From positions 1 to 64,000 of IMG/VR virus record IMGVR_UViG_3300011813_000035: a DNA stretch of 64,000 bases; one strand, written 5' to 3'. Made by a program: the position numbers and the translations under genes. How positions within the stretch are numbered: position 1 is the stretch's first letter; the number at the start of each line of letters is the position of its first letter. This DNA comes from an uncultured virus (IMG/VR IMGVR_UViG_3300011813_000035) (taxonomy: Duplodnaviria; Heunggongvirae; Uroviricota; Caudoviricetes). Below are positions 5,352 to 24,976 of this stretch, piece after piece. The notes under the pieces are model-generated. The model was not told where the DNA came from. It ran no database searches and saw only the letters and a program-made list of their open reading frames with translations.

Positions 5352-6410
5352 TTATTTTTTATTGACATGTATGACTCTTAGATCATAATAACTTCCAATA
5401 CGATTAACACATAGCGCAAATTGCTGAGTTTCGGTTGGAATCTCTATATAATTACTAAAAAGTATATATTTGATTCCACATGAGTTAGCAACCAATTCAA
5501 ATACTCCCTTTTCTCCACTAGAGTCCGAAAAACTACCTTTACGATAATAAATATCCACAGTAAAATTTTTACCGTCTTCTAAATGAATGATTCTGTTATT
5601 TTGTTTAGGTTCATAAAAAACAAATACTTTAGTAAAATCACCCTCTGTTTTAAAACCAACATCATAAGTAACCTTATTATCTCTTAAATCTACGTACTTA
5701 TTATCAATAAATATTACATCTTTGTCAGGCATTCCTACTGTTGAAACAATATTGCTCTTTATCTCTATAGAACCGTAATCTGATTTATTATTTAATTCTA
5801 GAGGGCTAAAAATTTGTGCGATTTGATAAGAAACGGTCAATAGAATATAACCTGTATCCAGATTCATGTTGTGAAGGGTTTTTCCTGTGGCTCTTATATA
5901 GTACTGCTTTGCATTTTCAAGTCCAGTAATTGTATATGACATATCTGTAGTGTCATAAATATTGCCAGAAGATTGTAATTCTGTTTTTTGATATGTGTAT
6001 AACGTTATGAGAAATGAGTTAAGAGATTCATTTTCTGTTTGATAATAATTAAGTCCTATTTTACACGTAGAAGATTTTAAAATATCACTATTCTCTACGG
6101 TTATTTTAAAGGCGGGAGAGGATAAACAGTAAAATGGAGTTCCTATGCCTTGAACACTTGATTCACTGTTGTTTACATCAAAAACAGTAATATAAGCTAT
6201 ATAATATCCACCATTTATTAATCCGGAATTTATAGGGACGATGAAAGATTGTTTCATTGATTCAACAATTTGGTCATATTTTATTTCGCCAGAAGTATTG
6301 TCTTTAATAATACAACGGACTTTGTAAATTTGATTTCCTTGCCATGTAAATTTAATTTCGGTCCCATCAGATGAATCAAATGGTTCGATATTATGAATTA
6401 TTGCATACAT
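5352..6410 (-). CDS. tail protein with FN3-like domains
   Basis: 'YTITGLENAKQYYIRATG' FN3-like motif; synteny. Confidence 0.55.
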   Translation of the reverse strand: MYAIIHNIEPFDSSDGTEIKFTWQGNQIYKVRCIIKDNTSGEIKYDQIVESMKQSFIVPINSGLINGGYYIAYITVFDVNNSESSVQGIGTPFYCLSSPAFKITVENSDILKSSTCKIGLNYYQTENESLNSFLITLYTYQKTELQSSGNIYDTTDMSYTITGLENAKQYYIRATGKTLHNMNLDTGYILLTVSYQIAQIFSPLELNNKSDYGSIEIKSNIVSTVGMPDKDVIFIDNKYVDLRDNKVTYDVGFKTEGDFTKVFVFYEPKQNNRIIHLEDGKNFTVDIYYRKGSFSDSSGEKGVFELVANSCGIKYILFSNYIEIPTETQQFALCVNRIGSYYDLRVIHVNKK

Positions 6411-6420
6411 TTATTTCTCC

Positions 6421-7263
6421 TTATAATAAATCTATAGGGCTATATATCACAAGAAACAATGCTGAAAACATACCACCAAGATTAATGTCATTGTGGTTAT
6501 GCCACCTCACATTAAAGCTGATTCCATTAATTTGAGAAACCTCGACGGTGACATTATCTGTATCGCAACCAATAGGAACGAAAATGGCACCTCCATCTAT
6601 TCCAACTATATTGCACACATATGATTTCTCTATATATGATCTAGCGTCGATGAGATCTATGACATCATTAACTTTATAAATTTCAAATTTCTTGAAGTAG
6701 TTATTAGATATATTTTTTGTGTAGTAGCGTGCATCGTGATCTTTGGAATTTATATGTGAGTTAAATGTAGAAACTGGAACTTTAGTGTTTATGGCTGCTT
6801 TCTGTTCACTTGAAATAGGTTTATCTAAATCGGAGGTATTATTAACTTTTTCTAATCCAATATTTTCAGCAGTAATATTAACATTTCCGGTTCTATAGGT
6901 TGATTCAGAATTACCTTTTATTCCAATAACACCAGATGTAGATGAGGAACTATCTCTTTGATAAGTATAGGATTGTATGTAAAGTTCATTCCAATCATTT
7001 CTCGGAGCACATACCCAGACCATATCATTTACATTAACATTGCCATCGCACTTTACAATGCATTCTTTACCTTTATATAATATTTTACATTTTTTTTCTG
7101 AGATATTATCAATCACCTTAGCTCGAAATGTTTTGTCATACTTCAATGAATCTGCTTTTACGCTGAATAAATAATTTAAATCTTCAGCAATTTTTTTATA
7201 TACATCTTGAAAATTCAAATGTTTATTTTCTCCTCTTAAAAAGGGACTCTGTATGAGTCCCAT
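6421..7263 (-). CDS. tail / baseplate protein
   Basis: OB-fold-like N-terminus, fibre-type motifs 'VNNTSDLDKPIS' and 'HDARYYTK'. Confidence 0.55.
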   Translation of the reverse strand: MGLIQSPFLRGENKHLNFQDVYKKIAEDLNYLFSVKADSLKYDKTFRAKVIDNISEKKCKILYKGKECIVKCDGNVNVNDMVWVCAPRNDWNELYIQSYTYQRDSSSSTSGVIGIKGNSESTYRTGNVNITAENIGLEKVNNTSDLDKPISSEQKAAINTKVPVSTFNSHINSKDHDARYYTKNISNNYFKKFEIYKVNDVIDLIDARSYIEKSYVCNIVGIDGGAIFVPIGCDTDNVTVEVSQINGISFNVRWHNHNDINLGGMFSALFLVIYSPIDLL

Positions 7264-7266
7264 AAT

Positions 7267-10200
7267 TTATCGTTTACCTAGCTGCTGTATTATGGCGCTC
7301 TTTAATCCTCCATTTAATATACCATCTGCTAACCTTTCGGTATCATTGCATTCTTGTATGTTAATGTTGCCAAACTTAAACTCTTGTGTAGTTAAATTTG
7401 AGTGACCCGATGAGAGATTAGTGTAGTCTATTTTAGACGGCGTAAAGTTCCAAGCAGTTGCTAAATTTTTGAGTAGCATATCTTGCTGTTCAGGGTTGAA
7501 TACGGCTTCATTTTTATGAAGAATAGCAGAGATTTCATCTTGATCCATCTTTTGCAGACCTAGTAGTTTCATTTTTGCTTCACGATCAGAGCCTGAAGAT
7601 GATCCAACTAATCCTCTTGTAATTCCATCTTTTCGTGATGTTGCTTTCTTTTTATCGTCAATTAAATCCCAAATTGGATCATCACTTTTCGACTTTGCAC
7701 CAGGCCCACTATTTACATACCCAGAACTACCTGTGCGAGACGGGCCATCGCTATCATCATCTTCGTCTTCATCGTCATCACCGTCACTAGCACTTTCTAA
7801 ATTATCCCTTACTTCCTCCAGAACGCGAAGCATAGAAGATACATTATCTGTAAGTTGTTGCCAACTAGAAGTATATTCAGATATGAGTCCAGCATTTTGA
7901 TTGTATTGCTTAAATGAATCTATTAATTCAGTGGCAGTATTTGCTAGACCTTGCTTTATACCTGAGAGAACATTTTCTGCATTGGCAGCCGTTCCATTCA
8001 TTGCACCTAAATAGTCATAAATATTCTGAATATTACCTTCTGCTGACATAGTTTGATTCATTTGAGCCAGTAAATTATTTATTCCAGTTAAGGCCTGATC
8101 GTAGGAGAGTGTACCTTCTTTATAAGAGGTAATATAGTCTTCCAGAAGTGAGTATATATTATTGGTAGTATTAATCTGCTCCTGATACTGTCTTAATTGC
8201 TCCGCGGTATTTGCGTACATACCAGAGAAGTTATTAAATAATTCCACATCTTTACCAGATAGAACTTTGTCCTTCCAACCGACTCCAAGCAGATCATTGG
8301 CTTTTGCTTCATTCTGAGCCTGAGTAATCTTTTCGCTGATTTCAGACCACTTATCAGATATTTTTTGTAGCGAGTCAATCTGATTTTGGTATTTTTCATT
8401 TAATCCATCAAGAGTTTCTTGTAATTCGTCGATTTGAGTCTGGATCTTATCAGTTTCCATATCAAATTTTGCGTCTTGAACTGCTTCTTGCGCATCACGG
8501 AGTTTATCTGCGTTCTGTTCATAAACAACCTGTCCATCTCGGATCACTTTTTCTGTTGCTTGCTGATTTGCTTTTTGGAGATTATAAAGGGCTTGTTCGT
8601 ATTTTTGCTGTAATTGAAGCTCCTTATTTTGCTTGTTGAGTAAATCCAACTTATCTTGCAAAGCTTTCTTTTGAGCATCATATTCCTCATTTACGGCATT
8701 TTTCTGTTCATTAATGGTATCAATCTGTTCTTTAATAGCTCCAGTTACGGCACTAATAGCAGTATCATACTCGCCTTTAACTCCACTAAGCCCGTCGGCA
8801 ACTTTCTGTAATTCAGAAGTATAATTATTGATATTCTCCAAGGGCATTTTCAGAAGTTCTTCGTTCCACTTTTGGAGATTTTGCACCATAGACGACATCT
8901 CAGAATTTACCGACTGCAACTGACCATACAATTCATTCCAACGAGTAGACCCTTCTTTTTGATTATCCATTACATTTTCAATTTCAGAAGCTAATTCTTG
9001 ATATTGATCTATAGTAGTAGCACCGTTAGAAATCAGAGTTTGGTAATAATCAGCGTTAAGCTTTTCCCCTGTAGCAGAAGCCACATTTCCCCAATTTTCA
9101 ATTGCAGAGGAGATATCCTTGTACATTGAAACTATCGTATTTAGATTATCAATAGGCATTTGCTCCAATGCTTGATTGCATTCTTCCTGTTCAAGCTCCA
9201 GACCTTGTATTTCATTCTTTGCAGCTTTTACTTTCGCCTGTAATTCCTTATAATCTTTTGATTTGACAGAAACGTTTGATGCCCGAAGATCAGCCATTTC
9301 AGATTCCCATTCAGCAATATTTTGTTGGTTGCCAGAAATCAAACCCTTATTATTGCTTTTTTGTTGCTTGTAGAAATCTGCATCGATAATTTCTCCACGC
9401 GCTTCCATTAAATCCATTTGAGATTTGATTATCTTATTGGACTGTTCTAATTTTTCGTTCTCAATATCGATTGCGCTGATTCTGTTTTCGTGAAGTTCCT
9501 TAATGGTTTGAATCTGTTTTTCTCTACCTTCTTCTAATTGCTTTTCTGAAGATTTCAGTTTCTCATTAGCATCAATAGCTGCCTGAACCTTTTTACCTAA
9601 ATCACTTGGTAAAGATTCAATTTTCACTCCACCATTTTCAATTTTATCTTTATATTCAGGAACAGCTTTTAGAGCATCAGCGTAAGCCTTAGTATAAGCA
9701 TCGACTTCTTGCTGATATTGTGGAAGCAATGTTTCAGTCTGCATTTTAAGCATACCTTGCAATGCATTTTCTTTTGATGCACTAGGAGCGCCAGATTGAA
9801 TCATCGTATAAAATTCGCCCAGGCTCAAACCTGCTTTATCGGCAAAACTTTGTAACTCAGACAGACCTTCGGTTGTATTACCAAGACCATTATCAAAGAT
9901 AGACTTTGCTTTATCGAATTGTTCTTGTGTTAATCCAAGGTATGCAACGGTATCTTTATTTGCCAGCTCCTCTAGTTTTGCATACTCATCTTGTAATACT
10001 TTGGTTCCACGAGCAATCCAGTCAACATCATTTTTTGTTTCATCTTTTTTCTTTTTATCGGAACCGGCTTTGTTGGATTTATTTGCTCCGCCATATATTA
10101 CATTGGTCTGAGTTCCTTTACCCATATATGCTCTGGCTGCCTTTGCGGCATCTTGCATCTCTTTTTCAGAAGCATTCTTGAGATCTTCTTTTCTTTTATT

Positions 10201-12660: not shown

Positions 12661-12683
12661 CGATAAAAACGCATATCATTATC

Positions 12684-12712
12684 TTTACTTCCAATAAAAA
12701 CAATGATAAAAT
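12684..12712 (+). promoter_or_regulatory. sigma70-type promoter for the zinc-ribbon gene, overlapping the intron 3' element
   Basis: TTTACT-N17-TAAAAT with TGn extended -10. Confidence 0.55.
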
Positions 12713-12743
12713 GAAAATAATAAATACTAAGGGGATATTATCT

Positions 12744-13193
12744 ATGAGTAAAGTAAAATACTGTAAATATTGCCGCAATCACCCTGAATTTTGCAAACAG
12801 GTTATCTTTCCTGGTTATACTAATTTTTGGGAAGAAACTGCGTATGTATGTCCGTTCTGTAACAATCCAATAGTAGATACAGTAATAGACTCCGAAGATA
12901 TGGACACTTTATCTAATGTTTCCAATGACATTTCTTTTCTCGAAGCAATGATCGATCTTAAACAAAAAGATCCCATTGAATTTCAGTTAAAGATGTCACA
13001 ATTTAAAGTGACGCAATCGCAAACTAAGGTAACAGAAGAGGAGAGCAATGCTCCCAGATGTCCTACCTGCTTATCAACCAATATAACACGTATAACCACA
13101 ACTGCAAAAGTGGCCAACATAGTTATGTTTGGATTACTTGGTAATCAAAGAAAGAAAACCTTTCATTGTAATAGTTGTAAATATGAGTGGTAA
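12744..13193 (+). CDS. zinc-ribbon protein with C-terminal hydrophobic segment
   Basis: SD AAGGGG then ATG at 12744; four CxxC pairs; 'PRCPTCLSTNITRI...MFGLLG...FHCNSCKYEW'. Confidence 0.75.
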   Translation: MSKVKYCKYCRNHPEFCKQVIFPGYTNFWEETAYVCPFCNNPIVDTVIDSEDMDTLSNVSNDISFLEAMIDLKQKDPIEFQLKMSQFKVTQSQTKVTEEESNAPRCPTCLSTNITRITTTAKVANIVMFGLLGNQRKKTFHCNSCKYEW

Positions 13194-13328
13194 ATTGCCC
13201 AAACGAACCTCTGAAAGTACCATGATTCTTTTTTAATTAGAATTAGCGAATAAATGTTCGGTCTATTCTTGTGGTAATTTCTGGTATATAATAATATCAT
13301 CATTAAGTACTGTGGGGGTATTATTTTT

Positions 13329-14429
13329 ATGTTTCCTGATGAGATAAGGCAAATTCTTAATAAATATCAAAATTACAATGAAGGTAGTATTCAAAATATA
13401 AATAAAAATATTAATATAATAATAACAGAATTCAAGATCATTAATGCGAACATAGCTAATCAACTTAATAAACTTGTCATAGATAAAAATACAAATAACA
13501 ATGCCGAAGAACTATTAAAGGATTCAATCGCATTACGAGATTATATAAATTCCATAAATTTATTAGAATTTGAAAAAACGCATAAAAATAACACCACAAA
13601 AATATTGGAAGAATCATTGTTTGTTTTTGATAAGATGGTATTTCCATATCTTGTATCAGATGATTTATGCCCTTTTTGTAATGTTAAATTAATTCCACAT
13701 TTAATTTATTATCAAAGAAATCTTAATAATCAATTGTTAAATGATGAAATTGAATGGAATAAATGTCCAAACTGTAAAAGGTTATTTGTCTTAGACTACG
13801 ATGCTGAAGCGTTTAACTTTGATAATACAAACATAACTTTAAACAAAGATAAATATGACGAAATTCCGTTAATAGATATTTATAGCGTGATTGTATTAAA
13901 TAATACGCTCAAATGCTCATTAAATCATCGATCAAAAGACTTGATGGCAAAAATACCGGTATTAAATGAAAGTGGTCAAATTTCATACTTAAAAATAAGC
14001 GCATCTTATTGCTTCGACTGTGAACGTTTTACAATTCTCAAAGATGACTTTAATGCAATAAAAGATGTAGTTATGTGTAAAGTAATTGATGAAACATCTG
14101 AGAGACAAAGTAATAATTACGATATGGAAATGGGACAAAAGCAATCCATTCTTTATAACTATGGCTATAATGTTCAGACGAAGAAAAACTTATCAGAGCA
14201 ACAGCGGCGTATTATTTTATCTTCTGTTATTGAAGCAAACATAATGAATAGGAGAGATGTAGTAAATCATATTAGCACTCTTATTGAAAGAGGCAATAAA
14301 ATATCATCTTGGAAAGATGCAACTCAAAAATGGAAGACTGATAGAAAGTTTGTATCTGAATATCAAAGTGAATGTTTACCAGAGGTTATTTTCAATAACA
14401 TTATTTTAAAATATAAGAAGTCTATATAA
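13329..14429 (+). CDS. hypothetical accessory protein with CxxC motifs
   Basis: 366-aa ORF, CPFC/CPNC/CFDC motifs, own promoter upstream. Confidence 0.7.
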   Translation: MFPDEIRQILNKYQNYNEGSIQNINKNINIIITEFKIINANIANQLNKLVIDKNTNNNAEELLKDSIALRDYINSINLLEFEKTHKNNTTKILEESLFVFDKMVFPYLVSDDLCPFCNVKLIPHLIYYQRNLNNQLLNDEIEWNKCPNCKRLFVLDYDAEAFNFDNTNITLNKDKYDEIPLIDIYSVIVLNNTLKCSLNHRSKDLMAKIPVLNESGQISYLKISASYCFDCERFTILKDDFNAIKDVVMCKVIDETSERQSNNYDMEMGQKQSILYNYGYNVQTKKNLSEQQRRIILSSVIEANIMNRRDVVNHISTLIERGNKISSWKDATQKWKTDRKFVSEYQSECLPEVIFNNIILKYKKSI

Positions 14430-14456
14430 TAAAAATTAATCTCTAATACTACGAAA

Positions 14457-14624
14457 ATGACAAATGTAGTAGGAAACAAACCTCATTGTCCATATTGTAC
14501 TTCCACCGATTTAAAGAAAATTTCTGGCCTAGCTAAAGCTGGGAGTGTAGCTTTATGGGGTGTTTTTGCAATGGGTAAAGTAAGCAAACAATGGCATTGT
14601 AATAGTTGTAATAGTGATTTTTAA
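14457..14624 (+). pseudogene. remnant C-terminal paralog of the zinc-ribbon gene (55 aa)
   Basis: MTNVVGNKPHCPYCTSTDLKKISG...LWGVFAMGKVSKQWHCNSCNSDF; shares CATTGTAATAGTTGTAA with the 12744 gene; no clear SD. Confidence 0.6.
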
Positions 14625-14631
14625 ATTACAT

Positions 14632-14664
14632 AAAGAGCAGGAGATTAGTCCTGCTCTCTTTTTT
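14632..14664 (+). terminator. rho-independent terminator (probably bidirectional)
   Basis: AGAGCAGGA-gattag-TCCTGCTCT followed by T-tract. Confidence 0.75.
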
Positions 14665-14807
14665 ATAGTCGAAAACAGACGTTCGGATATAATGACCAAA
14701 AAACGACGTTATCACGATAGTAATTGTCGCTGTTTGAATCAGTACATACTTGTGTTTCCCCTTACTACATGATAAACTAAAAATAAATTCTTTTGGAGGT
14801 GCCTATA

Positions 14808-15095
14808 ATGGTAAAAGTAATTGCAACGTTTAATATTAAGCCAAATTCGATACAGGAAGCTCTAAAAATCGCCCAAAAACTGATTTTTGCCACACGTCTA
14901 GAATTTGGCTGCATTGAGTATATCTTAGTGCAATCCGAAAGCGACGAAACGCATCTGGTAATGTTGGAATCATGGGAAAGTCAACAGCATCTTGACGTTC
15001 ACTCTGCTTCTGAACATTTTACTAAGTATGTTCCGCAGTTAGCAGCATTATGCTCCGCACCACCAGTTGTAGAAAAATTTAAGGTAGCAATATAG
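14808..15095 (+). CDS. antibiotic biosynthesis monooxygenase (ABM) / putative quinol monooxygenase family
   Basis: SD GGAGG; 'TRLEFGCIEY...ESWESQQHLDVHSASEHF' ABM-type motif. Confidence 0.8.
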   Translation: MVKVIATFNIKPNSIQEALKIAQKLIFATRLEFGCIEYILVQSESDETHLVMLESWESQQHLDVHSASEHFTKYVPQLAALCSAPPVVEKFKVAI

Positions 15096-15147
15096 CTTCC
15101 AACATATTACTGCCGTGTTATCCTTTCATAATTATATTTCCACATGC

Positions 15148-15180
15148 AAAAAGAGCCAGTCTACTTAACGTAGGTGGCTC
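15148..15180 (-). terminator. terminator between convergent cargo genes
   Basis: GAGCCA..CTAC/GTAG..TGGCTC hairpin followed by TTTTT on the minus strand. Confidence 0.6.
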
Positions 15181-15183
15181 ATA

Positions 15184-15840
15184 TTATTTTAGTTTTATCT
15201 TTTTATATAAAAAACAAAAGAACGTCACTAAATAGTTTTTACTGTTTTTCTCTGTATATGTAATTTCTATTCTGTCAAAATCTTTCGTGTTAATCATAAT
15301 TAATTCGTTCATTTTTTGAGAATTATCAATTACTATGTCAGTATCGTTGTCGAACTTTTGATAAGTCGCTAATACTATAATCGGTTCACTCTTAAAAGGC
15401 TCACCATATCTATACTGTCCTAAATAAGAACTTCCATCTTTCATAAAAACTCTTATCCAAGTATTTGGTTTAATTACGTCATCCCATATATTTTCATTCG
15501 TTGTTCGCCCAATATGTAACTTATGCAATAATCTATTAAACAACCTGTGAGATATGATTTTTCCAATGCTGAATCCCAATATAGCACTAATGGCAACCAA
15601 TATTACGGTTTTACTTATTCCACTATAAAAAATAATTTCATATTTTACAATTATCAAATCGAAACATGATTTCAATATAAAACTTGTAGCGATACTTTTT
15701 GTTAATAAATTTGTAAAGTCGGAGTTATCTTTGAAAGACATCCAATAATATGCCGTTAAAAATATGTATCCATATACAATGTATGGTAGTATCTCCGGCA
15801 TTTTTTCAATTAATTCTGTGACCCAGGTGATATATGTCAC
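15184..15840 (-). CDS. membrane protein (DUF6338-like)
   Basis: Three predicted TM segments then 'NIWDDVI...WIRVFMKDG..Y.G' Sm-like domain; GTG start after GGAGG. Confidence 0.65.
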   Translation of the reverse strand: MTYITWVTELIEKMPEILPYIVYGYIFLTAYYWMSFKDNSDFTNLLTKSIATSFILKSCFDLIIVKYEIIFYSGISKTVILVAISAILGFSIGKIISHRLFNRLLHKLHIGRTTNENIWDDVIKPNTWIRVFMKDGSSYLGQYRYGEPFKSEPIIVLATYQKFDNDTDIVIDNSQKMNELIMINTKDFDRIEITYTEKNSKNYLVTFFCFLYKKIKLK

Positions 15841-16082
15841 CTCCTACTATTTTTGTTTAATTTCCTTAGGTTTTACAGGCGGTTTTACTTCCTGTACTTG
15901 AAGTTGTTCCTGTTTAGATGATATTTCTACTATTTGACTATCTTTAGAGAATACTTTGCTAGTACTGTTATTCTTTTTATTCGGCACAATAATTTCCCCC
16001 ATATGTTTTTTCATTAATTATATACCATAATTTTCTATATTTCTACAGGAACGTAGGTTTGGATAACGGGGGGTGAACATAC

Positions 16083-16110
16083 AAAAGAGAGTGGAACTTA
16101 ACCACTCTCT
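16083..16110 (-). terminator. rho-independent terminator
   Basis: AGAGAGTGG-ttaagtt-CCACTCTCT followed by TTTG on the minus strand. Confidence 0.65.
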
Positions 16111-16118
16111 ATACGTAT

Positions 16119-16805
16119 TTATTCCTCTATGTGTATTCTAGCAAAATTCTCAACTGGAACAAGTTGAGAGTAATTATTATTGAAAGACTCACAGCTAATA
16201 GTAATATCCAAGGTTGAGTTATCATTAGTGTAAAATTGCTGATGTTCATCTGTTATAAATACAAAATCAGTTTCTTGTTTGTTCGCTGGAACTATTCCTT
16301 GATCACAATAAGTTAATGTTTTCATATCGAACATACGTAAATTTTTGGTTTTTCCGTTAGTTATCACTACAGCAACAGGATCTACAACTATATCCATTTT
16401 TCCTTCATTTACAAATCTGCACACTACAAGATTAGTCTTTACAAGTTTTTGTCCAGACCCCCAGATAACGCTAAAAATCATACCAGGTGTATTATCGTCA
16501 AGTATTCGTCCGTCATTGTCTACGCGATAACCTTCTGGAGTGTTCCAGTTATAGGTTAAAGAACCATCTGTGTATAGGTAATGCTTTATGCCATTAACCT
16601 CAATAAGTCCAGTTTGCATATATCCATTAGAATCGAAATGATATTTTCTATCACCCAGCGTCAACCAGTCGTCTTTAACATGACTTCCATCATCATTTTG
16701 GTAGAACCAACCCACATTATCTTGTTTCCATTCTCCAGCAAATGATATAATTGTACTGCTCATAGTAATGATAACTGACATTAATAGCGCTAAAAACTTT
16801 CTCAT
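16119..16805 (-). CDS. secreted protein with cell-wall/choline-binding repeats
   Basis: Signal peptide MRKFLALLMS..SFA, 'WKQDNVGWFY' and 'YHFDSNGYMQTG' repeats typical of Lachnospiraceae. Confidence 0.75.
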   Translation of the reverse strand: MRKFLALLMSVIITMSSTIISFAGEWKQDNVGWFYQNDDGSHVKDDWLTLGDRKYHFDSNGYMQTGLIEVNGIKHYLYTDGSLTYNWNTPEGYRVDNDGRILDDNTPGMIFSVIWGSGQKLVKTNLVVCRFVNEGKMDIVVDPVAVVITNGKTKNLRMFDMKTLTYCDQGIVPANKQETDFVFITDEHQQFYTNDNSTLDITISCESFNNNYSQLVPVENFARIHIEE

Positions 16806-16895
16806 ACAAATTCCTCCCATAACTGTTTTATGTATTATAACATGGAGAGAGTATTAATTCTATAAAATAGCTTAAGTATTATATATGAATTTGAT

Positions 16896-17363
16896 TTATG
16901 ATAACTCTAAGCGCTCATATAATTCGCATAGTGCAACTTGAACATTTGTGACACGATTACTTACATCAGATATTGTGATAGGTTTTGAACCATCATCAGA
17001 AGGTAATTTATCAATTAAATCATCTATTTCCTTCTTTTTAGTTTCATCTAACTCATAGTGATACTTGGTTTCATAAGTAATTCTTTCTACTGGTTCTATT
17101 TCTACATAATCTACAATTTCAGTATTAAATTCACCAGTTTCGTTTCCTTCCTCATCGAAGACAGGAAATTTAACTTCTCTTTGTCTCTTCACCTCTTCAT
17201 TGACTATGATTTTGTTCTCAATTTCTTCTGATACAATCTTATAAGCAGTGTAATAAATCTGTTCACCTTCTGGTAAAATTTCCATTGGTATCGAATTATC
17301 AAGATCACCAACTAAACAATAATTACCAGTTAAATAATTATTGCTATCTATCTGAACTTTCAT
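16896..17363 (-). CDS. tail fibre assembly / chaperone-like protein
   Basis: Follows the fibre genes; ends 'VQVALCELYE' like ORF 356-739. Confidence 0.55.
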   Translation of the reverse strand: MKVQIDSNNYLTGNYCLVGDLDNSIPMEILPEGEQIYYTAYKIVSEEIENKIIVNEEVKRQREVKFPVFDEEGNETGEFNTEIVDYVEIEPVERITYETKYHYELDETKKKEIDDLIDKLPSDDGSKPITISDVSNRVTNVQVALCELYERLELS

Positions 17364-17375
17364 GTTAAAAACCTC

Positions 17376-18920
17376 CTATGATTGATACGTTTTATATTTG
17401 ATACCTATGACTTTTGTTATATGAGATTGGTTTTGGTTAATAAAAAGGCTACTGTGTGTTGAAGTAACAGGAAGAATATTAGTATAAGCGGGAGATGTCT
17501 GATACCCAAATAAACACGAAACATATGTGTTGGTTGGTTTTGAATCTATAAGAGGAATAATCTCATCTTTAGGAATTTCCTTATAATCATAATGTTTTGT
17601 TGATACATTATATATACTGTAAAAATAAATTCCCAACTTATCATAATTGTCTATAGAATCTAATAAATTAATTGTATTAGAAACTGCCGTAGTACCATCT
17701 GTCCCTATATTGCCTTCAAATAATACTGTTTCCTCAATTAAACCTTGAATACTCATAAAATATGTAGGTTCATACTTGATACAATATAAAACAGCAGTAT
17801 TAGTAGGGCGCGATGTGTATTTAGTATATCCACCTACAGCCGACCAGTTTGTTAACGAACCTGTGTTAGTCCATCCTCTTGAATTAGATGATGGAATTAA
17901 TTTATCTATGGCATTGGTTAATACCCCACTAGTACCATACTCCCCATTTAGATAAATATGAGAACCTGAATCTACTACAAAATTAATATGTTGGGTGGCA
18001 TCTTGATGCTTTCCTATATCCCCAGATAGTTTTTCTGTTTTATCTCCATAATATCCTCTTAAAAATTCATTACTTAAGTCTGGAACTGCAAATGTGGTTA
18101 TGCCGTTTCCACCAAAGTAATTGAATGTGCCAAATTGATCTTTTATATACTGCGATAAATGCGGATAGTCTACAATATTATATATGGTACCATCGCAAAT
18201 AAGATAGTGTTTTGGTGCCACTTTACCCATCTGTGATAGTATATGACCTACGGGACAATCCTCAATTCCTTTATCAGAATTTACATATTCTACAGGATCA
18301 ATTATAGTTCTTTCCACTTCTTGTATATTCAAATAAGATGTATTTTGTAGCTTGGCACCTGTTTGAGTGCCTCCTATAACTGTTACTCTAATACCAACAT
18401 CAATATCAGTTGTTGGTGTTATTACACAAAAGGATGGTAATATTGCTTGATTTATACCAACATTAGACTCACAAACTCCAGCTTTACCAAGTACTTTAGA
18501 ATTTGTATAATCATGTAAACTATAATACATATATCCTTGATAAGATATTAGTCTTATCAAGGCTTCTATATTATACGTAACATTTGCCTTTAATTTATAC
18601 ATTTTAGTATTTTGATCATAATCAATACCATTATTCACTGTAGGAGTAAACGGTAATGCCAAATTTACCGCCGGTGTAAATGCTAGTCCATCCACAACAC
18701 CTGCTAAACATTGAACATTCTTTTGATTTACTGTTTTCTGCGCTATACTTATAGAATTAACCTTATCTACCTCAGTCTGTAATCCGCTTATGGCTGATAT
18801 AGGGTGAGCATCATTAGAATCCCTTCCAGCAATCACATTGTGACTGCTGGGGATTTTTCCTGTAATAAAGTTTAAAATACTTTCTACTGAAACGCCTAAG
18901 TTTGTTTTACTGATTCCCAT
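17376..18920 (-). CDS. tail fibre protein with phage tail-collar domain
   Basis: 'PVGHILSQMGKVAPKHYLICDG...FAVPDLSNEFLRG...SRPTNTAVLYCIKY'. Confidence 0.8.
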   Translation of the reverse strand: MGISKTNLGVSVESILNFITGKIPSSHNVIAGRDSNDAHPISAISGLQTEVDKVNSISIAQKTVNQKNVQCLAGVVDGLAFTPAVNLALPFTPTVNNGIDYDQNTKMYKLKANVTYNIEALIRLISYQGYMYYSLHDYTNSKVLGKAGVCESNVGINQAILPSFCVITPTTDIDVGIRVTVIGGTQTGAKLQNTSYLNIQEVERTIIDPVEYVNSDKGIEDCPVGHILSQMGKVAPKHYLICDGTIYNIVDYPHLSQYIKDQFGTFNYFGGNGITTFAVPDLSNEFLRGYYGDKTEKLSGDIGKHQDATQHINFVVDSGSHIYLNGEYGTSGVLTNAIDKLIPSSNSRGWTNTGSLTNWSAVGGYTKYTSRPTNTAVLYCIKYEPTYFMSIQGLIEETVLFEGNIGTDGTTAVSNTINLLDSIDNYDKLGIYFYSIYNVSTKHYDYKEIPKDEIIPLIDSKPTNTYVSCLFGYQTSPAYTNILPVTSTHSSLFINQNQSHITKVIGIKYKTYQS

Positions 18921-21207
18921 TTAATATACCCTCCACATAATCTCTGATTTCTGAATCGGTATACGTGGTGTCATCGCCTCCTCCAGTACCGGAAGTTGAT
19001 CGATATCTAATACCAATGACTTTATCTAGTCGAGACTGATATTGATTCAAGTCTAATCTAAGATTAGTAGAGGTTCTCTGTATATCTGTATAATCAACTA
19101 CATTAGAAAATCCCCAAACTAATGAAATTGTATGATTTATATTTGTATTTGATTGAATACAAGCAATGATCTGACTAGGATATATTTCTTTATATTGTGG
19201 GCGCAAAGAGCCATCTGTTCTTATACAAGTAAAGAAAAAACCTATTTTATCGTAATTTGTAAATGAGTCTTTTAAGTTAATTGAATTTGCTACAGTTGTA
19301 GCCTTGGTAGTCCCGACATTACCTTCCCATAATACTATCTCATCTACTAAACCATTAATATTTATAAAATAAGTAGGCTCGTATTTAATGCAATATAGGA
19401 CTGATACGTTAGTTGGTCTAGGAGCAACAAATCCAATATTTTCTGGATATCTGTTTGTTTCAGAAGTGGAGGGTGCAAATACAACTGTTGTTCCATTTTG
19501 ATATTGAGATATTGAATCATAATTTTTTGAAACATATGGAGTTACTGTATTATTAGCAACATATAATCTTGAGTTAGTAGCTGAAAAATATCCACTTGGA
19601 ATTTGAGTCGCTTCTTGATGGACGCCTATTTCTCCTGATAACTGTTTTGAATTATTTTCATGATAACCACGTAAAAATTCATCCCTTAAGTCTGGTACGG
19701 CAAAAGTAGAGGAGCCATCTCCACCAAAGAAGTTAAAAGTTCCGAATTGGTCTTTAATGTATTGAGAAAGATAAGGATATTCTACGATTTTATATATCGC
19801 CCCGTCACAAATTAGGTAGTGTTTAGGCGCAGTTTTACCCATTTGTGGCAGGATACTACCAACAGGAGTGTCTTCAATGCCATTTGCAGTATTAATGTGT
19901 TCCACAGGATCAATAGTAACGTTTCTTCCTATTTCCTGAATAATAAAATAAGAAGCATTAACTGAAACTGGGGTTTCGTCACCAGTGGTTCTTACTTTTA
20001 CACAAATTTCAATATTTGTTGTTGGCTTAATAACGCATTTTGATTGGAAAACAGACTGAGATAGTGGACTGGTTGTAGCACTTAAACCATCTGTACCTAT
20101 CCATCTAGCGTTTGTTTTATCATATATATTTAGATAAAAGTATTTTGAATTAGGAGTTGCTATCCTTGCAAGAGCCTCTATAGAATATGTTTTATTAGCT
20201 TTTAATGTATATGACCATGTAGATACGTCAAATTCTATATTGTTATTAACATAAGGAATAAATTTTATTGTATCATTTGTGTTAGTGGTTACAGTAATAC
20301 TTTCCTGATTGCTGGGATTTGCTGCTAGACTTCCAAAACAATATTCTAATTGAGTGTTTACTGTTTTTTGTGAAAGATTAATATCATTAACATTTTTACT
20401 TACTGTTGCAACTTCATCAGAAATTTTAGTACTGCTCCAAGTTTTAGTAGTAGAAGTAGTATTATTGTCAATAATATTTCCTGTGTTACTAAGAGATGCT
20501 AATTTTAGCTTTTCTTCAGATGTGAAATTTGCTTGACTAAGCCCAAAACCATTTATTATATTTACTTTTTTATTCAGTAAATCATCGGTATCAGCTTTAG
20601 AATAATAATTGGTTAAATCAATATCTGTGGTACCTATATTTGCCCATTCATTATTTAAGTAAAGCCATTGGAGGTATGAATTTTTATCTGTTTCCTTCTG
20701 TAAATACATAGTTGTTGCTGAGATATTTTCTGATGGTAGAACCTCTATTATCTCAATAGTCAATGAATTTAGATTTGCAATCAATGAATTAATCTCGGTC
20801 TTTGAATAAGATTCCATTTTACTATAATAATTCATTAGGTTTGAAACAGATATTGTAATAAAATACGAATCATTTACTAATTGTGATATCAGTGTAGGTA
20901 TTTCAGGCTTGTCCTTTAAATCATTATAGCTTCCTGACGTAGCAGCATCAGAAAACCCTAACTGTTCGGGCGTTCTATTCCCCACCAATTCCACTCCATT
21001 GATTACCGGCCTGTTATATAGAGATTCATAATCACTTGCGCTTCCAGAAACAGTTTTATAAGTTCCATCGTCGAATAACGCTTTATTTCCTTCGCCACCA
21101 GAAGTAAGCTTTTGAATATTTTCTTTTTGATCTGAGGTGATAATTTCCTCAGCTACTTTGTCTGTATAACTCTTACCCGCGGCTAGAGTTGTTAAATCAA
21201 TTCCCAT
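18907..21207 (-). CDS. tail fibre protein with phage tail-collar domain
   Basis: 'PVGSILPQMGKTAPKHYLICDG...FAVPDLRDEFLRG...RPTNVSVLYCIKY'; N-terminal fibre repeats; paralog of 17376-18920. Confidence 0.8.
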   Translation of the reverse strand: MGIDLTTLAAGKSYTDKVAEEIITSDQKENIQKLTSGGEGNKALFDDGTYKTVSGSASDYESLYNRPVINGVELVGNRTPEQLGFSDAATSGSYNDLKDKPEIPTLISQLVNDSYFITISVSNLMNYYSKMESYSKTEINSLIANLNSLTIEIIEVLPSENISATTMYLQKETDKNSYLQWLYLNNEWANIGTTDIDLTNYYSKADTDDLLNKKVNIINGFGLSQANFTSEEKLKLASLSNTGNIIDNNTTSTTKTWSSTKISDEVATVSKNVNDINLSQKTVNTQLEYCFGSLAANPSNQESITVTTNTNDTIKFIPYVNNNIEFDVSTWSYTLKANKTYSIEALARIATPNSKYFYLNIYDKTNARWIGTDGLSATTSPLSQSVFQSKCVIKPTTNIEICVKVRTTGDETPVSVNASYFIIQEIGRNVTIDPVEHINTANGIEDTPVGSILPQMGKTAPKHYLICDGAIYKIVEYPYLSQYIKDQFGTFNFFGGDGSSTFAVPDLRDEFLRGYHENNSKQLSGEIGVHQEATQIPSGYFSATNSRLYVANNTVTPYVSKNYDSISQYQNGTTVVFAPSTSETNRYPENIGFVAPRPTNVSVLYCIKYEPTYFININGLVDEIVLWEGNVGTTKATTVANSINLKDSFTNYDKIGFFFTCIRTDGSLRPQYKEIYPSQIIACIQSNTNINHTISLVWGFSNVVDYTDIQRTSTNLRLDLNQYQSRLDKVIGIRYRSTSGTGGGDDTTYTDSEIRDYVEGILNGNQ

Positions 21208-21339
21208 TTATTATGTTTCACCTATATCTTTCTAATTTATGATATTTAAAGGTAAGTAAATCTTTATATCTTATACACATTGGAACATGCATTAACAGCA
21301 TATGAAATATGGTTTTCATGTGTTGTGTTACTATTTACT

Positions 21340-21729
21340 CGCTAATGTTTTTGGAAGTCATCTAACGAGAAGTATAGCTACTTACTATTAATACGCACCG
21401 TATAGTTACGGTTGGCTTTTTCACTATTGCACTCAACAATAGGTTGCTGACTATACCTTAACGAATACATGTATAATATCCGTCCGCTCTGGTAGTCGAT
21501 GAGACCGGCACTTTTCATAAAGAGAGTACGCCTGTCCGCTGATTGGGTCACCATGTTACATTATGAGTTACATGAGCCGTTCCAGTCCTAGTACAGTTGT
21601 TACCATATCTGTAAACCACGGAGCCACCCATGGTCGTATAAAGCGTTTACAAATCCAAAGTCCTCTTGTCTTATTAAATAGACTCGTTCCTGTTTTATCT
21701 ATGGTTATTTAGCCATGGCAGTAGGACTT
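21340..21729 (-). ncRNA. group I ribozyme core (5' part of intron 2)
   Basis: P7 TCGACTA/TAGTCA with bulge, P8 ACGGATAT/GTATTCGT, P9 CTATTG/CAATAG, J8/7 AAGGTATAGTC; P4 is divergent. Confidence 0.75.
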
Positions 21730-22672
21730 ACCTGAACCATGCAAGATTTGCGTTAATCCATTTTCATGAAAATCCAGGCCATGTGATGATAAGTTTTTTG
21801 ATGCGAGTGCTCCTATTCCTGCCCCTAATAAGCCTAATGGGGAGAGAAAATTTATAATACCTGTTCCTGTTTTCGTTAAGGAAGTTCCAAAATCAAGAAA
21901 GAAATTTATTGCTCCAGAATCAATTAGACTATCCGATAAACCAATGAATGCGTTTTGAAGTTTCTCTGTATGAGCAGCAACAGAATCTTGGTATGCGTTA
22001 AATTTTTCCATTGCACTACCAGAGGAACTCAACGAGGTTTCTGTGTATTTTAAAGCAGTATCATATTGGCTCATTAAGATTAGAAAGTCATTGATGTGAT
22101 CAGTCCCAGCAAATGCGCTTGCAATTGCATGTTGTGATACTTCGGAAAAACTCCCCCATTTACCAGCAACCTCATCTAATACATCTCCAAAATTACGAAA
22201 TGAATTTTGACTGTCTCGAAGATTAATTCCTTCCCCCCGAAGCACAGTTTCAACATTACTGAGATCTTCACCTGAATTCTGGTAGTCCTTAAGTCTTGAT
22301 AGCTTAACATTGCCCATGCGAGAGAAGATGGCATTTAATGAACGGCCAACACTTGACATACTGTCCTGAGTTGTTTCGCCAATAACAGCTAGATACCCTA
22401 GTAGTTTATCCATTGAAATCCCAGCAAGATCGGCACTAGATGCTACTTCACTCATACCTTCGGCAAGTCCGCCTACATCAGTAGCAGAATCCATATCTAC
22501 CGCAGAAAGCTTGTCCACAACACCGAGGGTATTTCCAACTGCAACATTATAACCTTTCATTGCACTAGTAAGATACTTGGTAGATTCGGCAGAATCTAGC
22601 TTTCCTACCTTTGACAGTATCATGGAATCACGAATTAGCTCTTCGGTTTCGGCTATACTTTTACCTTGTTTT
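21730..22672 (-). CDS. tape measure protein, exon 2 (TP901-type core)
   Basis: KQGKSIAETEELIRDSMILSKVGKLDSAESTKYLTSAMKGY...VDKLSAVDM; frame open from 22671; end placed at candidate 5' splice site GGT| (21730, alternative 21736). Confidence 0.8.
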
Positions 22673-23843
22673 CTTTTTTGTTACTCCTAAAAGTCGTTAA
22701 TTTTTAGGAGATTTTCGGTTTTTTCTTTAAAGTTATATATGTATACAATAATATCTTTTTGAGTTAATATGTTAAAAGCCCTTTCTTTAATTTTTAATAA
22801 TTCAAATTCACTTAGCATAGTAGAACTCTTATTTTCTATTACAAAGGTTTTATATCCACTTTTAGAAAAATATTTATATTTTTCTAATTCTTTTTGATTA
22901 AAATCATCTATTGAAATTTTATTATGTATGACATCTAAAAAATGCCCACCACCATTATATTCAAAACAAACTTTTTCATCAAAAAATAAAATGTCCGTAT
23001 GGTATTTACCAATAGGGACATTTTCATAACCTTTATATATAGATTGTATAAAATCTTGCTGTTTGCTACTTCTAACCTTCCTTTTATCGTTACATATTGC
23101 ACTATCTATACTTTCTATATTATTATATACGGTTATCTCTTTATAATTATTGATACAGGTTATAAAGCATTTCTTTTGTATCTCCTTATTTTGCAATGGA
23201 TATTCAACACCGTATTTCTCTATAAAAGTTTTTCTGGTTTTATTACGAGTAAATTTTTCTTGTAAAGTACAATTTACACCGTATTTTCTTAGATTTGTTT
23301 TTTGGAATTTATACTTCTTACAATTATTACAACAAACATCATTTGGAGATTTAAGATAGTCTCTGTATGACTTTAAAAAGTCTGTTTTGCAATAATCACA
23401 TTTTACCTTTATTTTTACTCCAGATCCCTTTGACAAATCAAAAACTTTTACTATTAGATTATATCCATCTACCGCATCATAACCCATGTTAATATAGTGA
23501 TCAATATTATATTTCGTAATTTTTACACATACATATTCTTGTAAAACCAATTAACTACCATGCTTTTAACATATACAAACCGAAAATTTTCTTATACTTT
23601 CATATAAGAACAGACTATATCTTTATCTACAATAAGTAGATACTCCCCATTTCCATTCACTTGAATGTACTTCCATATAGGAATAGTCGTTGAAGTTTTC
23701 TCTTTTCGAGACTTACCTGCTGATCACCCAATCATCATAATTTTTAACTTTCACACTTGACCATATTTCATATCTATGTTGTAGTTTATGAAGCTCTAAG
23801 GGCCTTCCAGCAATTAAAGGAGTTTTAAATGACCTAAACGTTA
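22673..23843 (-). mobile_element. group I intron 1 (IA-type, 1171 nt) with endonuclease ORF
   Basis: P1 AATGGCT|TAA/TTAGGTCATT with U.G pair; P AATTGCTGGAA, Q GATCAGCAGG, R TTCAACGACTAT, P7.1/7.2, P8, S AAGATATAGTCTG; omega-G 22673; splicing restores E-W-L-K-Q-G in frame. Confidence 0.92.
22687..23550 (-). CDS. intron-encoded putative homing endonuclease (Zn-binding N-terminus, Vsr/EDxHD-like PD-(D/E)XK C-terminus)
   Basis: CDYC..CNNC, repeats 'KYGV', 'HTDILFFDEKVCFEYNGGGHF'; lies in the P9 region of intron 1. Confidence 0.75.
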   Translation of the reverse strand: MVLQEYVCVKITKYNIDHYINMGYDAVDGYNLIVKVFDLSKGSGVKIKVKCDYCKTDFLKSYRDYLKSPNDVCCNNCKKYKFQKTNLRKYGVNCTLQEKFTRNKTRKTFIEKYGVEYPLQNKEIQKKCFITCINNYKEITVYNNIESIDSAICNDKRKVRSSKQQDFIQSIYKGYENVPIGKYHTDILFFDEKVCFEYNGGGHFLDVIHNKISIDDFNQKELEKYKYFSKSGYKTFVIENKSSTMLSEFELLKIKERAFNILTQKDIIVYIYNFKEKTENLLKINDF

Positions 23844-24976
23844 AGCCATTCGGTGCCTGAGATGGTTACGTCTGTAACAGTGGCACTTAATTCATCTCCC
23901 AATTTAGAATAACTTGCGATATAAGATTCTAATTGTTTCTTGGAAGAACCGGTTGCCATATCAAGGTCGGTGATTGCCCCGTTTAATTCGATTGCCGAAT
24001 CCTTCATCTTTTTAAGACCTGTTACAGCTAACATTATTCCACCTGAAACAGTAAACCAAGAGAAAAACTTACTTCCCATATCTTTAAAGGAATCTGTCCA
24101 TGTTTTGCCCAGTAATCCCATATCTCTAGTATTAGATTTGATTTTTTCGAATTCTGCATTAAGCTGTTTAAATTCGGTCACCGACAAATTGGGGTTGTTA
24201 AGTCGATCAAGAACTCCGTTGACGTTTGCTCCGAGACTCTTCATAGCCTTACTGTTATTATCAGCCCATGTTTTAACGGAATTGATTTTGGCTAATCTCT
24301 GAGATTCAGTCGTAAATCCTTTTTGAGCGGAAGTAAGCTGTTTTATCTGATTCTCAACTTTACCATATTCTGTCTCCAACACTTTTGCATTGCTAATTAG
24401 AGTTTTCCCGTCAGAACTGTCACCAAGAGATTTTAACGCAGTATTTACACCCAATAATTCTTTCTGTATGTCTTCTGTTGATAACCCTAATCCCCTAAAA
24501 GATGCAGTTAAAGTCTCAACTTTTGCTTCATTAGTTCCAGAATTAATAGCTTGATTTATTCTTGTTACGGCAATATATTCGTCTTCTAACGCTTTATTGA
24601 TGGCTTTATTCTGGGTAAGCTGAGAACGTTTTTCTTCAGCTTTTGCAATCTGTTCTGATTTGCCACGAACACGCTCCATTGTATCGACAAGTTTTTCCTC
24701 GGCCTTGGCTGCACGTACACTATCTTTCTCAATTTGATTAATTGCCTTCAATAAATCAGTATCATTGATTTTAATATCAATTCCGGTAATTTTCTTAAGT
24801 TCTTTTTCCAGTTCTGGAACTATATTTTTTACAGTTTTAATTAATTCAGCCTTGTTTAAATCGGCACTAAGATTCAAATGGTACTTTTCTACTACCTTTT
24901 GTACTTCTGCAATATCAGATTTTCCTATACCGCTTGAATCTAATACCGCTTGAAGCAATACTCTAAAATCGTTCAT
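23844..24976 (-). CDS. tape measure protein, exon 1
   Basis: SD AAAGGAG; helical N-terminus then 'ELNGAITDLDMATG...LGDELSATVTDVTISGTEW' TMP core start. Confidence 0.85.

Follow-up and report, generated by a model that had tools for sequence, protein, structure and literature searches.

The tape measure gene of a large SPbeta-like siphovirus prophage in a Lacrimispora genome is split into three exons, and the second of its two intervening sequences, here called intron 2, is probably a giant group I-type intron, spliced, most plausibly in cis, from the late transcript of the phage's own YonO-like RNA polymerase. The sequence analysed, referred to throughout as the window, is the 64,000-nucleotide (nt) stretch at positions 1 to 64,000 of the uncultured-virus record IMGVR_UViG_3300011813_000035 of IMG/VR. 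It covers part of the prophage, with genes that include a terminase, a portal protein, lysis genes, an integrase, and the YonO-like polymerase. We infer splicing, its mode in cis, and read-through by the YonO-like enzyme from four features visible in DNA, namely the anatomy of the locus, a compact homologue in a related genome, the conservation of the parts, and their recurrence at one codon. To our knowledge, group I introns of bacteria and phages are regarded as compact, with an endonuclease gene or an insertion sequence at most.

A tape measure gene in three exons

Exons 1 and 2 are separated by an ordinary group I intron (intron 1; coordinates in Table 1). Joining position 23844 to 22672 gives an open frame of 692 amino acids (aa) in register with the uninterrupted protein P0121 of the Lacrimispora comparison genome G042. 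Exon 1 ends in U and exon 2 begins after G22673, and the open reading frame within the intron matches a homing endonuclease family (phrog_12131, 3e-21) and DUF7487. The Rfam group I model RF00028 matches at 23591-23853 (75 bits, E 6.5e-19) when the search is confined to about 1.3 kilobases (kb). Intron 1 is missing from G042, from a second comparison genome (G035), and from relatives' contigs in two DNA sequencing runs, X1 and X2.

Exons 2 and 3 match positions 679-941 and 910-1680 of the PHROG 4211 tape measure profile, so the two pieces abut, and they map to adjoining parts of yomI of SPbeta-type phages and of 2,000-aa homologues. The gene thus has the YomI-type order of a PF10145 domain followed by a long C-terminal part that is contiguous in relatives. 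An initial annotation of the window, made by inspection of the sequence, had stated that exon 2 lacks a tape measure continuation, that exon 3 opens without a start, and that removal of both introns predicts a protein of 2,489 aa. These statements were borne out, and the coordinates that the annotation gives for each element are correct: the exon 2 frame meets a stop 7 codons past 21730, the 1,797-codon frame opens at 12660 with a TTG at 12621 as its earliest in-frame start codon, and 692 plus 1,797 residues make 2,489. We found no phage records near-identical to the window.

The two flanks of the 9,069-nt intron 2 are halves of one intron, since they are joined within 486 nt in G035. A DNA search located the 5' part in three of 49 genomes of the genus, the window's own (G000) included. 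In G042, some 8.7 kb separate it from exon 3 downstream, as in the window, and both carry the 5' 386 nt and a 3' tail of about 45-90 nt on either side of the intervening genes, which we call the cargo. The G035 element sits at the same codon, starts with AAGTCC, and ends in ATACG immediately before CTTGCAAGCTA. It is collinear with window positions 21729-21347 and then reaches the same junction of CG with CTTGCAAGCTA, exon 3 following about 100 nt on. Homology between G000 and G035 covers the 5' 386 nt plus about 20 nt more, to AAATAGT, and returns near AGATAAT, with some 20 nt left to the 3' end. The roughly 100 nt in the middle of the G035 element form an extended hairpin, and in G000 and G042 the cargo takes the place of its tip. 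The 8.6 kb may be an insertion into the intron or, conversely, may have been deleted in G035. The initial annotation had proposed a giant intron whose 3' domain is rebuilt across about 8.6 kb; the halves of one intron and the placement of the cargo inside a peripheral 3' stem-loop uphold it, while RF00028 is silent and one of the helices it relied on is not conserved.

Uninterrupted alleles also occur, so that intron 2 is an optional element at a fixed site: the comparison genome G017 reads through, and nine of the 120 exon 2 homologues listed run on for more than 1000 aa. A 20-mer pattern scan returned G035, G042, and one chance match in an unrelated contig (L021; L-numbers denote IMG/VR, metagenome, or phage-record loci); the scan of IMG/VR returned nothing. 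Independent DNA contigs from runs X1 and X2 bridge exon 2, core, and cargo, and also tail and exon 3. No joint that skips the cargo occurs in these contigs, a negative that says nothing either way given their thin coverage.

A group I-type core, its long-range stem, and its predicted splice sites

The 5' part is predicted to fold into a P3-P7 pseudoknot with P8 and a J8/7-P7 segment. By eye, GACTA...AAGGTATAGTC reads as P7 and J8/7, and CGCTTT with AGAGCG as P3. P3, P7, and P8 are 100% paired in the three sequences (G000, G035, and G042), and one P7 pair and two P8 pairs have changed on both sides. The J8/7-P7 segment AAGGTATAGTC is one base from the RF00028 consensus AAGAUAUAGUC. A 91-pair model is 99.6% paired, with 10 double-sided changes against 3.4 +/- 1.5 in shuffles (none of 500 as high) and only 0-2 compensatory pairs when partners are slid, figures biased in its favour because the structure was drawn from the same three sequences used to score it. 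One of the arms inside P3 has AA where J4/5 would lie and a Q-like AATCAGC, which would allow it to be P4-P5; two extra hairpins precede it, one with a GTAA loop. A P1 can be drawn in which the last two exon bases, GT, and the first intron bases, AAGTCC, form a helix of 8 base pairs (bp) with the guide GGATTTGT, T21730 lying opposite the second G of the guide as a U-G wobble. On these features, set against the silence of RF00028, the unusual arms within P3, and the weak P1, we class intron 2 as group I-type and not as a proven member of group I.

Core and 3' tail are complementary across the cargo in a two-tier stem. The outer tier pairs ACTTCCAA with TTGGAAGT and is identical in G042; the inner tier pairs GAGTAAA with TTTACTC and reads GAGAAAA/TTTTCTC in G042, a compensatory change. 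Both tiers correspond to the stem of the terminal hairpin in the compact G035 element. The distance from the start of the outer 3' strand to the terminal G is 34 nt in G000, 32 nt in G042, and 34 nt in the IMG/VR contig L016, where the outer pair (TTGTGGAG/CTCCACAA) is again of 8 bp and has the same geometry in a different sequence. Such a stem is present in three of the four giant introns examined, two of those three being close kin.

Three nested helices between the region after P9 and the tail had been proposed, with covariation in relatives as their test, and all three complementarities exist in the window: TGAAAA (21423-21418) with TTTTTA (12669-12664), GCGTATTA (21396-21389) with TGATATGC (12678-12671), and ACTTCCAA with TTGGAAGT. 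The last is the outer tier, kept in G042. By eye, G042 and G035 each have an equivalent of the GCGTATTA/TGATATGC helix in the same register, one pair having changed in a compensatory way; the helix ends at 12670, not at 12661. We rejected the TGAAAA/TTTTTA helix, which uses nine extra bases of the window and has no counterpart in G042 or G035, where these 9 nt do not occur. Separately, a promoter-like site on the plus strand at 12684-12712 (TTTACT, 17 nt, TAAAAT with TG), suited to the antisense zinc-ribbon gene described below, overlaps the outer helix strand, and its bases may act both as a promoter in DNA and as a stem in RNA.

The 5' exon ends in GGT in every intron type at this codon (TCAGGT in the window, GTCGGT in L016, TACGGT in the metagenome locus L037), and all examples read have U at the 5' splice site and a terminal G at the 3' end. 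In the window, G12661 directly precedes the exon 3 frame, and a terminal G is likewise found in G042, G035, L016, L039, L037, and L035. All three Lacrimispora introns have CG immediately before CTTGCAAGCTA: G042 ends in ATGCG, G035 in ATACG, and the window in ATATGCG followed by nine extra bases, TTTTTATCG. These nine bases make G12670 an equally good in-frame 3' site, with which the protein would gain FLS, and by homology the 3' splice site may sit 9 nt upstream, between 12670 and 12669. Of the proposal that the intron ends at G12661, the G itself is confirmed and the exact position is open to this shift.

The proposed exon join, TCA GGT to CTT GCA AGC, is in frame and agrees with the intron-less G017 gene and with the splice sites of the other introns at the site. 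A 3' site before CTTGCAAGC is backed by G017 (...SGLDFASYSDKDGFGGILS), by L039 (...ACG before ATTGTAAACTATGAC), and by P10 pairing in L016, and the opening residues of exon 3, LASYDAKNGFSGILS, match FASYSDKDGFGGILS inside the uninterrupted G017 gene. L016 has a 7-bp P1 with a U-G wobble (exon TGTCGGT with guide GCCGACA), a 5-bp P10, and a terminal G, and a P1 can also be drawn in L037. An alternative 5' site after CAAATCT at 21744, with the guide GGATTTG, was rejected: it keeps the frame only if the 3' site is placed within exon 3, it drops residues aligned with G017, L039, and L016, and all introns at the site follow GGT.

Recurrence, constraint, and cargo

Insertions of 4-9 kb occur at this site in at least five lineages. 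In L016, which is the same phage as metagenome locus L036, an N-terminal part ending in GTCGGT is separated by a 6,142-nt gap from a C-terminal part of 3,097 codons, and two antisense genes beside exon 3 (L016 positions 7802-9423) are homologous to the window's zinc-ribbon gene and its neighbour, which encodes a 366-aa protein (p366). The p366 gene lies between exon 2-like and exon 3-like parts in L016/L036, L037 (gap of about 4.4 kb), L039, and L042, and in L035 and L040 its neighbour is an exon 3-like part. The 176-kb phage record MT835469.1 is among the sequences with p366 between parts of the tape measure gene.

A profile of the three-sequence core, searched with nhmmer, found nothing in L016, L037, L039, or L042. 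The by-eye homology of the L016 core to that of the window was dropped on this result; what the two share is the site, the cargo module, and the geometry. As the L016 and L037 cores are not detectably related to that of the window, the site appears to be a hot spot for several intron types. Three unrelated ribozyme cores are found with the p366/zinc-ribbon pair by the 3' splice site, and the p366 module accompanies the 3' end irrespective of the core. The pair of antisense genes, the zinc-ribbon protein being about 150 aa, may be a homing or maintenance module.

Of the 120 exon 2 homologues listed, 111 end within 80 aa of the site, and 74 have a KNxG/D motif close to their end. The pattern points to a site often occupied by introns, the split genes being recorded as broken by gene callers. 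The short-called homologues end a few residues past KNxG/D in read-through tails (e.g., ...NCFEYA) of at least three or four types. L039 has a further intervening sequence at 15679-15300 in its PF10145 part, at residue 232 of the exon 2 query; it contains a Q-like AATCGCAGG and may be a third intron site in the tape measure gene. In L016, two convergent perfect sigma-70 promoters (12 of 12 matches, extended -10) at 3848-4281 flank a terminator; by eye, a small hydrophobic reading frame is also present, a layout of the type I toxin-antitoxin kind, and the L016 cargo also holds an ImmA/IrrE-type M78 peptidase gene at 6026-6565.

Exons, core, and cargo are under constraint. Ratios of nonsynonymous to synonymous divergence (dN/dS) were taken between G000 and G042. 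The cargo is present in both, so they should have diverged after its arrival unless recombination intervened. The ratio is 0.035 for exon 2 (dS 0.32), 0.126 for exon 3 (dS 0.59), and 0.19 for the 766-aa fibre gene in the cargo (dS 0.67). The core differs at 31 of 385 positions (91.9% identical) and is conserved several-fold (4-7x) beyond synonymous sites; it is 81.8% identical to the compact G035 element, with exon 2 at 66.5%. The exon 3 frame is open from the junction for 1,797 codons in G000, 1,774 in G042, and 1,621 in G035. Over its first roughly 80 codons, identity between G000 and G042 is no more than 48%, yet both frames are open from the junction onward, and the earliest in-frame start differs: in G000 it is a TTG, at codon 14, and in G042 an ATG some 85 codons into the frame. 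Exon 3 is therefore predicted to be translated from the junction, and a dead gene or a dead ribozyme would not be expected to show such constraint.

The cargo begins with sense-strand genes that include two tail fibre-like paralogues and ends with three antisense genes (Table 1). A gene-cargo locus inside an essential gene had been suggested before; the position of the cargo within a peripheral 3' stem-loop, with ACTTCCAA/TTGGAAGT as the outer tier of its stem, and the purifying selection on exons and core are consistent with it. No cargo protein matches a transposase or recombinase family in Pfam, NCBIfam, or PHROGs (the nearest hint is Zn_ribbon_IS1595 at 17.9 bits, cut-off 25.4), the longest direct repeat at its ends is 7 bp, and its G+C content of 28-34%, against 34-37% in the exons, is not distinctive. 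The p366 model (predicted local distance difference test score, pLDDT, 82.7) has no fold match, and searches for its function in Pfam, NCBIfam, PADLOC, PDB sequences and profiles, Foldseek, VIA-align, and Atlas gave coiled-coil and zinc-ribbon noise only. Distant p366 relatives in five other Lachnospiraceae genomes are in no case beside tape measure genes. The 149-aa zinc-ribbon gene, named for a weak match that falls below the Pfam cut-off, has a counterpart in the same place in L016 and L039.

Just inside the cargo lies a hairpin-forming element with a match of 66 nt in L037, a metagenome locus with a different ribozyme core; possible roles are those of a promoter within the cargo or of a site of RNA processing. 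The DNA contigs of the X2 relative skip 15181-16104 (the DUF6338 region) and 19277-20849 (part of the fibre gene), and cargo content thus differs between close relatives.

Table 1. Features of the tape measure locus and of the sequence it carries, with the YonO-like polymerase (window positions).
Feature	Position	Strand	Remarks
Tape measure exon 1	24976-23844	-	ATG at 24976; open reading frame; collinear with G042 and G035 over the exon 1/exon 2 junction
Intron 1	23843-22673	-	1,171 nt; ordinary group I intron; homing endonuclease reading frame at 22687-23550
Tape measure exon 2	22672-21730	-	PF10145 (3.7e-21); phrog_4211 positions 679-941; ends ...TCAGGT
Intervening sequence 2 (intron 2)	21729-12661	-	9,069 nt between exons 2 and 3
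Putative ribozyme core, 5' part of intron 2	21344-21729	-	386 nt
Candidate guide GGATTTGT	21656-21649	-	core model
P3	21645-21640 with 21490-21485	-	core model
P7	21497-21493 with 21453-21449	-	core model
P8	21483-21477 with 21467-21461	-	core model
P9	21442-21437 with 21429-21424	-	two further 3' hairpins after P9
Outer helix, 5' strand ACTTCCAA	21358-21351	-	pairs with TTGGAAGT at 12694-12687; identical in G042
Inner helix, 5' strand GAGTAAA	21340-21334	-	pairs with TTTACTC at 12752-12746
Hairpin-forming non-coding element	21263-21327	-	83% over 66 nt to L037 13313-13248
Tail fibre-like protein, 766 aa (Collar domain)	18907-21207	-	PF07484, phrog_1858; 80% identical in G042
Tail fibre paralogue, 514 aa (Collar domain)	17376-18920	-	family and profile matches
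Protein with no assigned function, 155 aa	16896-17363	-	weak matches only
Protein with choline-/cell-wall-binding repeats, 233 aa	16119-16820	-	PF01473, endolysin-type PHROGs
DUF6338 protein, 218 aa	15184-15840	-	homologous DNA in L035
ABM-domain protein, 100 aa	14793-15095	+ (antisense)	PF03992 (2.6e-17)
p366, 366 aa	13329-14429	+ (antisense)	coiled coil, two zinc ribbons, helical C-terminal part; 114 homologues, none named
Zinc-ribbon protein, 149 aa	12744-13193	+ (antisense)	start and ribosome-binding site beside the intron 3' tail
Intron 2 3' tail	12661-12752	-	inner strand 12752-12746, outer strand 12694-12687, terminal-helix strand 12678-12671, terminal G 12661
Tape measure exon 3	12660-7267	-	1,797 codons; phrog_4211 positions 910-1680; no start codon at head
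YonO-like single-chain RNA polymerase, 957 aa	51650-54523	-	phrog_8308 (1.5e-92)

Expression, rival explanations, and known systems

The YonO-like polymerase has tblastn matches to phage genes annotated as polymerase and to an SPbeta-like Bacillus phage, and it is 78% identical to the product of a gene in MT835469.1. YonO transcribes the late genes of SPbeta as a single operon, pauses little, and has no flap domain of the kind used in hairpin termination (PMC5467207). Read-through of the cargo is plausible by analogy, as the phage encodes such an enzyme. After induction, the YonO-like polymerase would transcribe the late operon through the cargo into one long late RNA, in which the 5' core would fold before the 3' tail is made. 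The emerging tail would then be brought to the core by the two-tier stem (8 bp and 7 bp) and the helix by the terminal G, about 20 bp in all, which would position the 3' splice site. Exon ligation would give ...HGSG-LASYD..., or the same with FLS inserted if G12670 is used, and so a tape measure protein of about 2,489 aa, and the sense-oriented fibre genes would be translated from the same late RNA.

The cargo's own signals, terminators in the window and sigma-70 promoters in L016, would suit expression by the host polymerase in the lysogen. A bolder idea, which we put forward tentatively and think rather unlikely as a whole, is that the intron, beyond being a tolerated parasite, partitions gene expression and serves as a cargo platform. 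The host polymerase would express the cargo alone in the lysogen, starting at promoters of the cargo and stopping at its terminators, and the full precursor would need the terminator-blind YonO-like polymerase, tying tail assembly and fibre expression to the late switch; p366 and the zinc-ribbon protein would be a new homing or maintenance module that moves cargo between introns at one codon.

Several observations weigh against a spliced group I-type intron. RF00028 gave no match at E values up to 10 in searches of 600-850 nt covering window positions 21200-21800, the compact G035 element, and L016, and a scan of G000, G035, and G042 found intron 1 alone (75 bits; gathering score 50 bits). The initial annotation had looked to a group I covariance model for support, and none came for intron 2 from any of the three genomes. 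The filters of RF00028 drop even intron 1 in window-wide and gathering-mode searches, so the model's reach is limited; the negative in the 600-nt search still counts. P3 encloses four arms instead of the canonical P4-P5 and P6. The P1 drawable in the window includes two exon bases only, both in wobble pairs, and it has rivals: exon bases -21 to -15 can take up the guide, and AGGACTT can pair with intron bases 1-7. Out of 1000 shuffles each, 120 for G000, 101 for G042, and 155 for L016 reach an 8-bp complement, which is therefore weak alone, its weight coming from position and comparison. L037 has no clear counterpart of the long-range helix, and the cores of L016 and L037 show no detectable homology to that of the window, as noted above. 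G000 and G042 are closely related, so that features common to both are not independent. The cargo, finally, holds terminator-like hairpins on the sense strand at 16110-16086, after the 233-aa gene, and at 14659-14632, where a terminator at 14634-14657 comes after p366, and its last 2.4 kb consists of antisense genes.

These hairpins would fit trans-splicing, the nearest rival and in our view an unlikely one, in which exons 1 and 2 with the core and the tail with exon 3 are separate RNAs, the second from a cargo promoter, joined by the 8-bp and 7-bp stems and the terminal helix. A strong sense-strand terminator about 600 nt into the L016 intron points the same way, the conserved element at 21327-21263 could be the internal promoter, and organellar group I introns that splice in trans exist in nature (PMC2731911). 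Yet no sense-strand promoter stands out upstream of the 3' tail (45 promoter-like sites in the scan against 55 expected), antisense genes fill the region just upstream of the tail, some 20 bp of pairing gives separate RNAs little with which to find each other, and the phage encodes a processive polymerase of the YonO type. Less likely than trans-splicing are translation in two pieces, decay, and excision from DNA. If no splicing took place, the tape measure function would fall to two polypeptides, a 699-aa N-terminal piece that terminates within the intron and a C-terminal one whose start lies in exon 3, as gene callers predict in many relatives and as the weak P1 and the lack of an Rfam match would allow. 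We doubt this, as exon 3 has no start conserved between G000 and G042, its frame opens right after the terminal G, its first 13 codons align inside an uninterrupted homologue, and a dead intron would not keep a core conserved 4-7x beyond synonymous sites.

Decay, with an insertion into the intron that killed the tape measure gene and a remainder that is being lost, is suggested by the location of the window in a prophage within a bacterial assembly; we hold it to be very improbable in view of the low dN/dS of exon 2, exon 3, and the fibre gene since the split of G000 and G042, the 1,774-1,797 codons without a stop, and the same architecture in several lineages, including the 176-kb phage record and a 60-kb IMG/VR contig. 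The least probable reading makes the cargo a mobile or invertible segment that a recombinase cuts out on induction, leaving a compact intron or an intact gene. The 8-bp and 7-bp inverted repeats that flank the cargo correspond, against this, to the stem of the compact intron's hairpin. The conserved p366/zinc-ribbon pair without assigned function and the variable content of the cargo in close relatives would be in keeping with excision, but the longest end-to-end direct repeat is 7 bp and no cargo protein matches a recombinase or transposase family, the best hint staying at 17.9 bits below a cut-off of 25.4. We therefore retain splicing, probably in cis, as the best explanation.

If splicing is real, it would show that a ribozyme can build its active site over a distance of 4-9 kb inside a bacterial cell, with ribosomes and polymerases on the loop. 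The intron loop would then be a safe harbour for accessory and host-range genes within an essential gene. Splicing would also account for hundreds of tape measure genes called as "truncated" in gut and soil phage data, and the element would offer a natural scaffold for large payloads in self-excising RNA. In the open-access literature searched, we found no group I-type intron of a phage or bacterium with several cargo genes over 4-9 kb, only mitochondrial cases and IStrons coming near; this is not proof of absence.

Introns in phage tail and tape measure genes are on record (PMC3706429 and PMC2504315). Phage group I introns with a homing endonuclease, such as intron 1, share with intron 2 the location in an essential structural gene, the U at the 5' site, the G at the 3' end, the P3/P7/P8 core, extra DNA in a peripheral loop, and intron-less alleles. 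They carry one endonuclease gene, as the 1.17-kb intron 1 does, whereas in intron 2 nine or more genes, encoded on both strands, make up a payload of about 8.6 kb, no endonuclease is recognisable, and RF00028 does not match.

IStrons, in which a group I ribozyme is fused to an IS200/IS605 insertion sequence element of about 2 kb with transposases and an inverted-repeat stem bridging the insert, are another parallel (PMC4227781). They resemble intron 2 in having the ribozyme at the 5' end and foreign DNA before the 3' splice site, in occurring in Bacillota, and, in some cases, in an atypical P1 and 5' splice-site geometry. They differ in carrying transposases, for which no family match was found in intron 2, and introns of the intron 2 type hold 4-9 kb of accessory and tail-fibre genes at one fixed codon of a phage gene.

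Two organellar systems are also comparable. The ND5-717 group I intron of hexacoral mitochondria is 18-19 kb long, holds genes in P8, and is removed by back-splicing (PMC6545197). Like intron 2, it is a many-kilobase group I intron of an essential gene with functional genes in a peripheral segment, and it is removed at the RNA level; it is organellar with its cargo in P8, whereas intron 2 is a phage element with a P9-type extension. Trans-splicing group I introns of organelles, such as that in Isoetes cox1 (PMC2731911), likewise have a ribozyme broken in a peripheral loop whose halves meet by base pairing. There the halves come from separate loci and transcripts, whereas in the window one strand carries both, separated by 8.6 kb, and a single transcript could include them.

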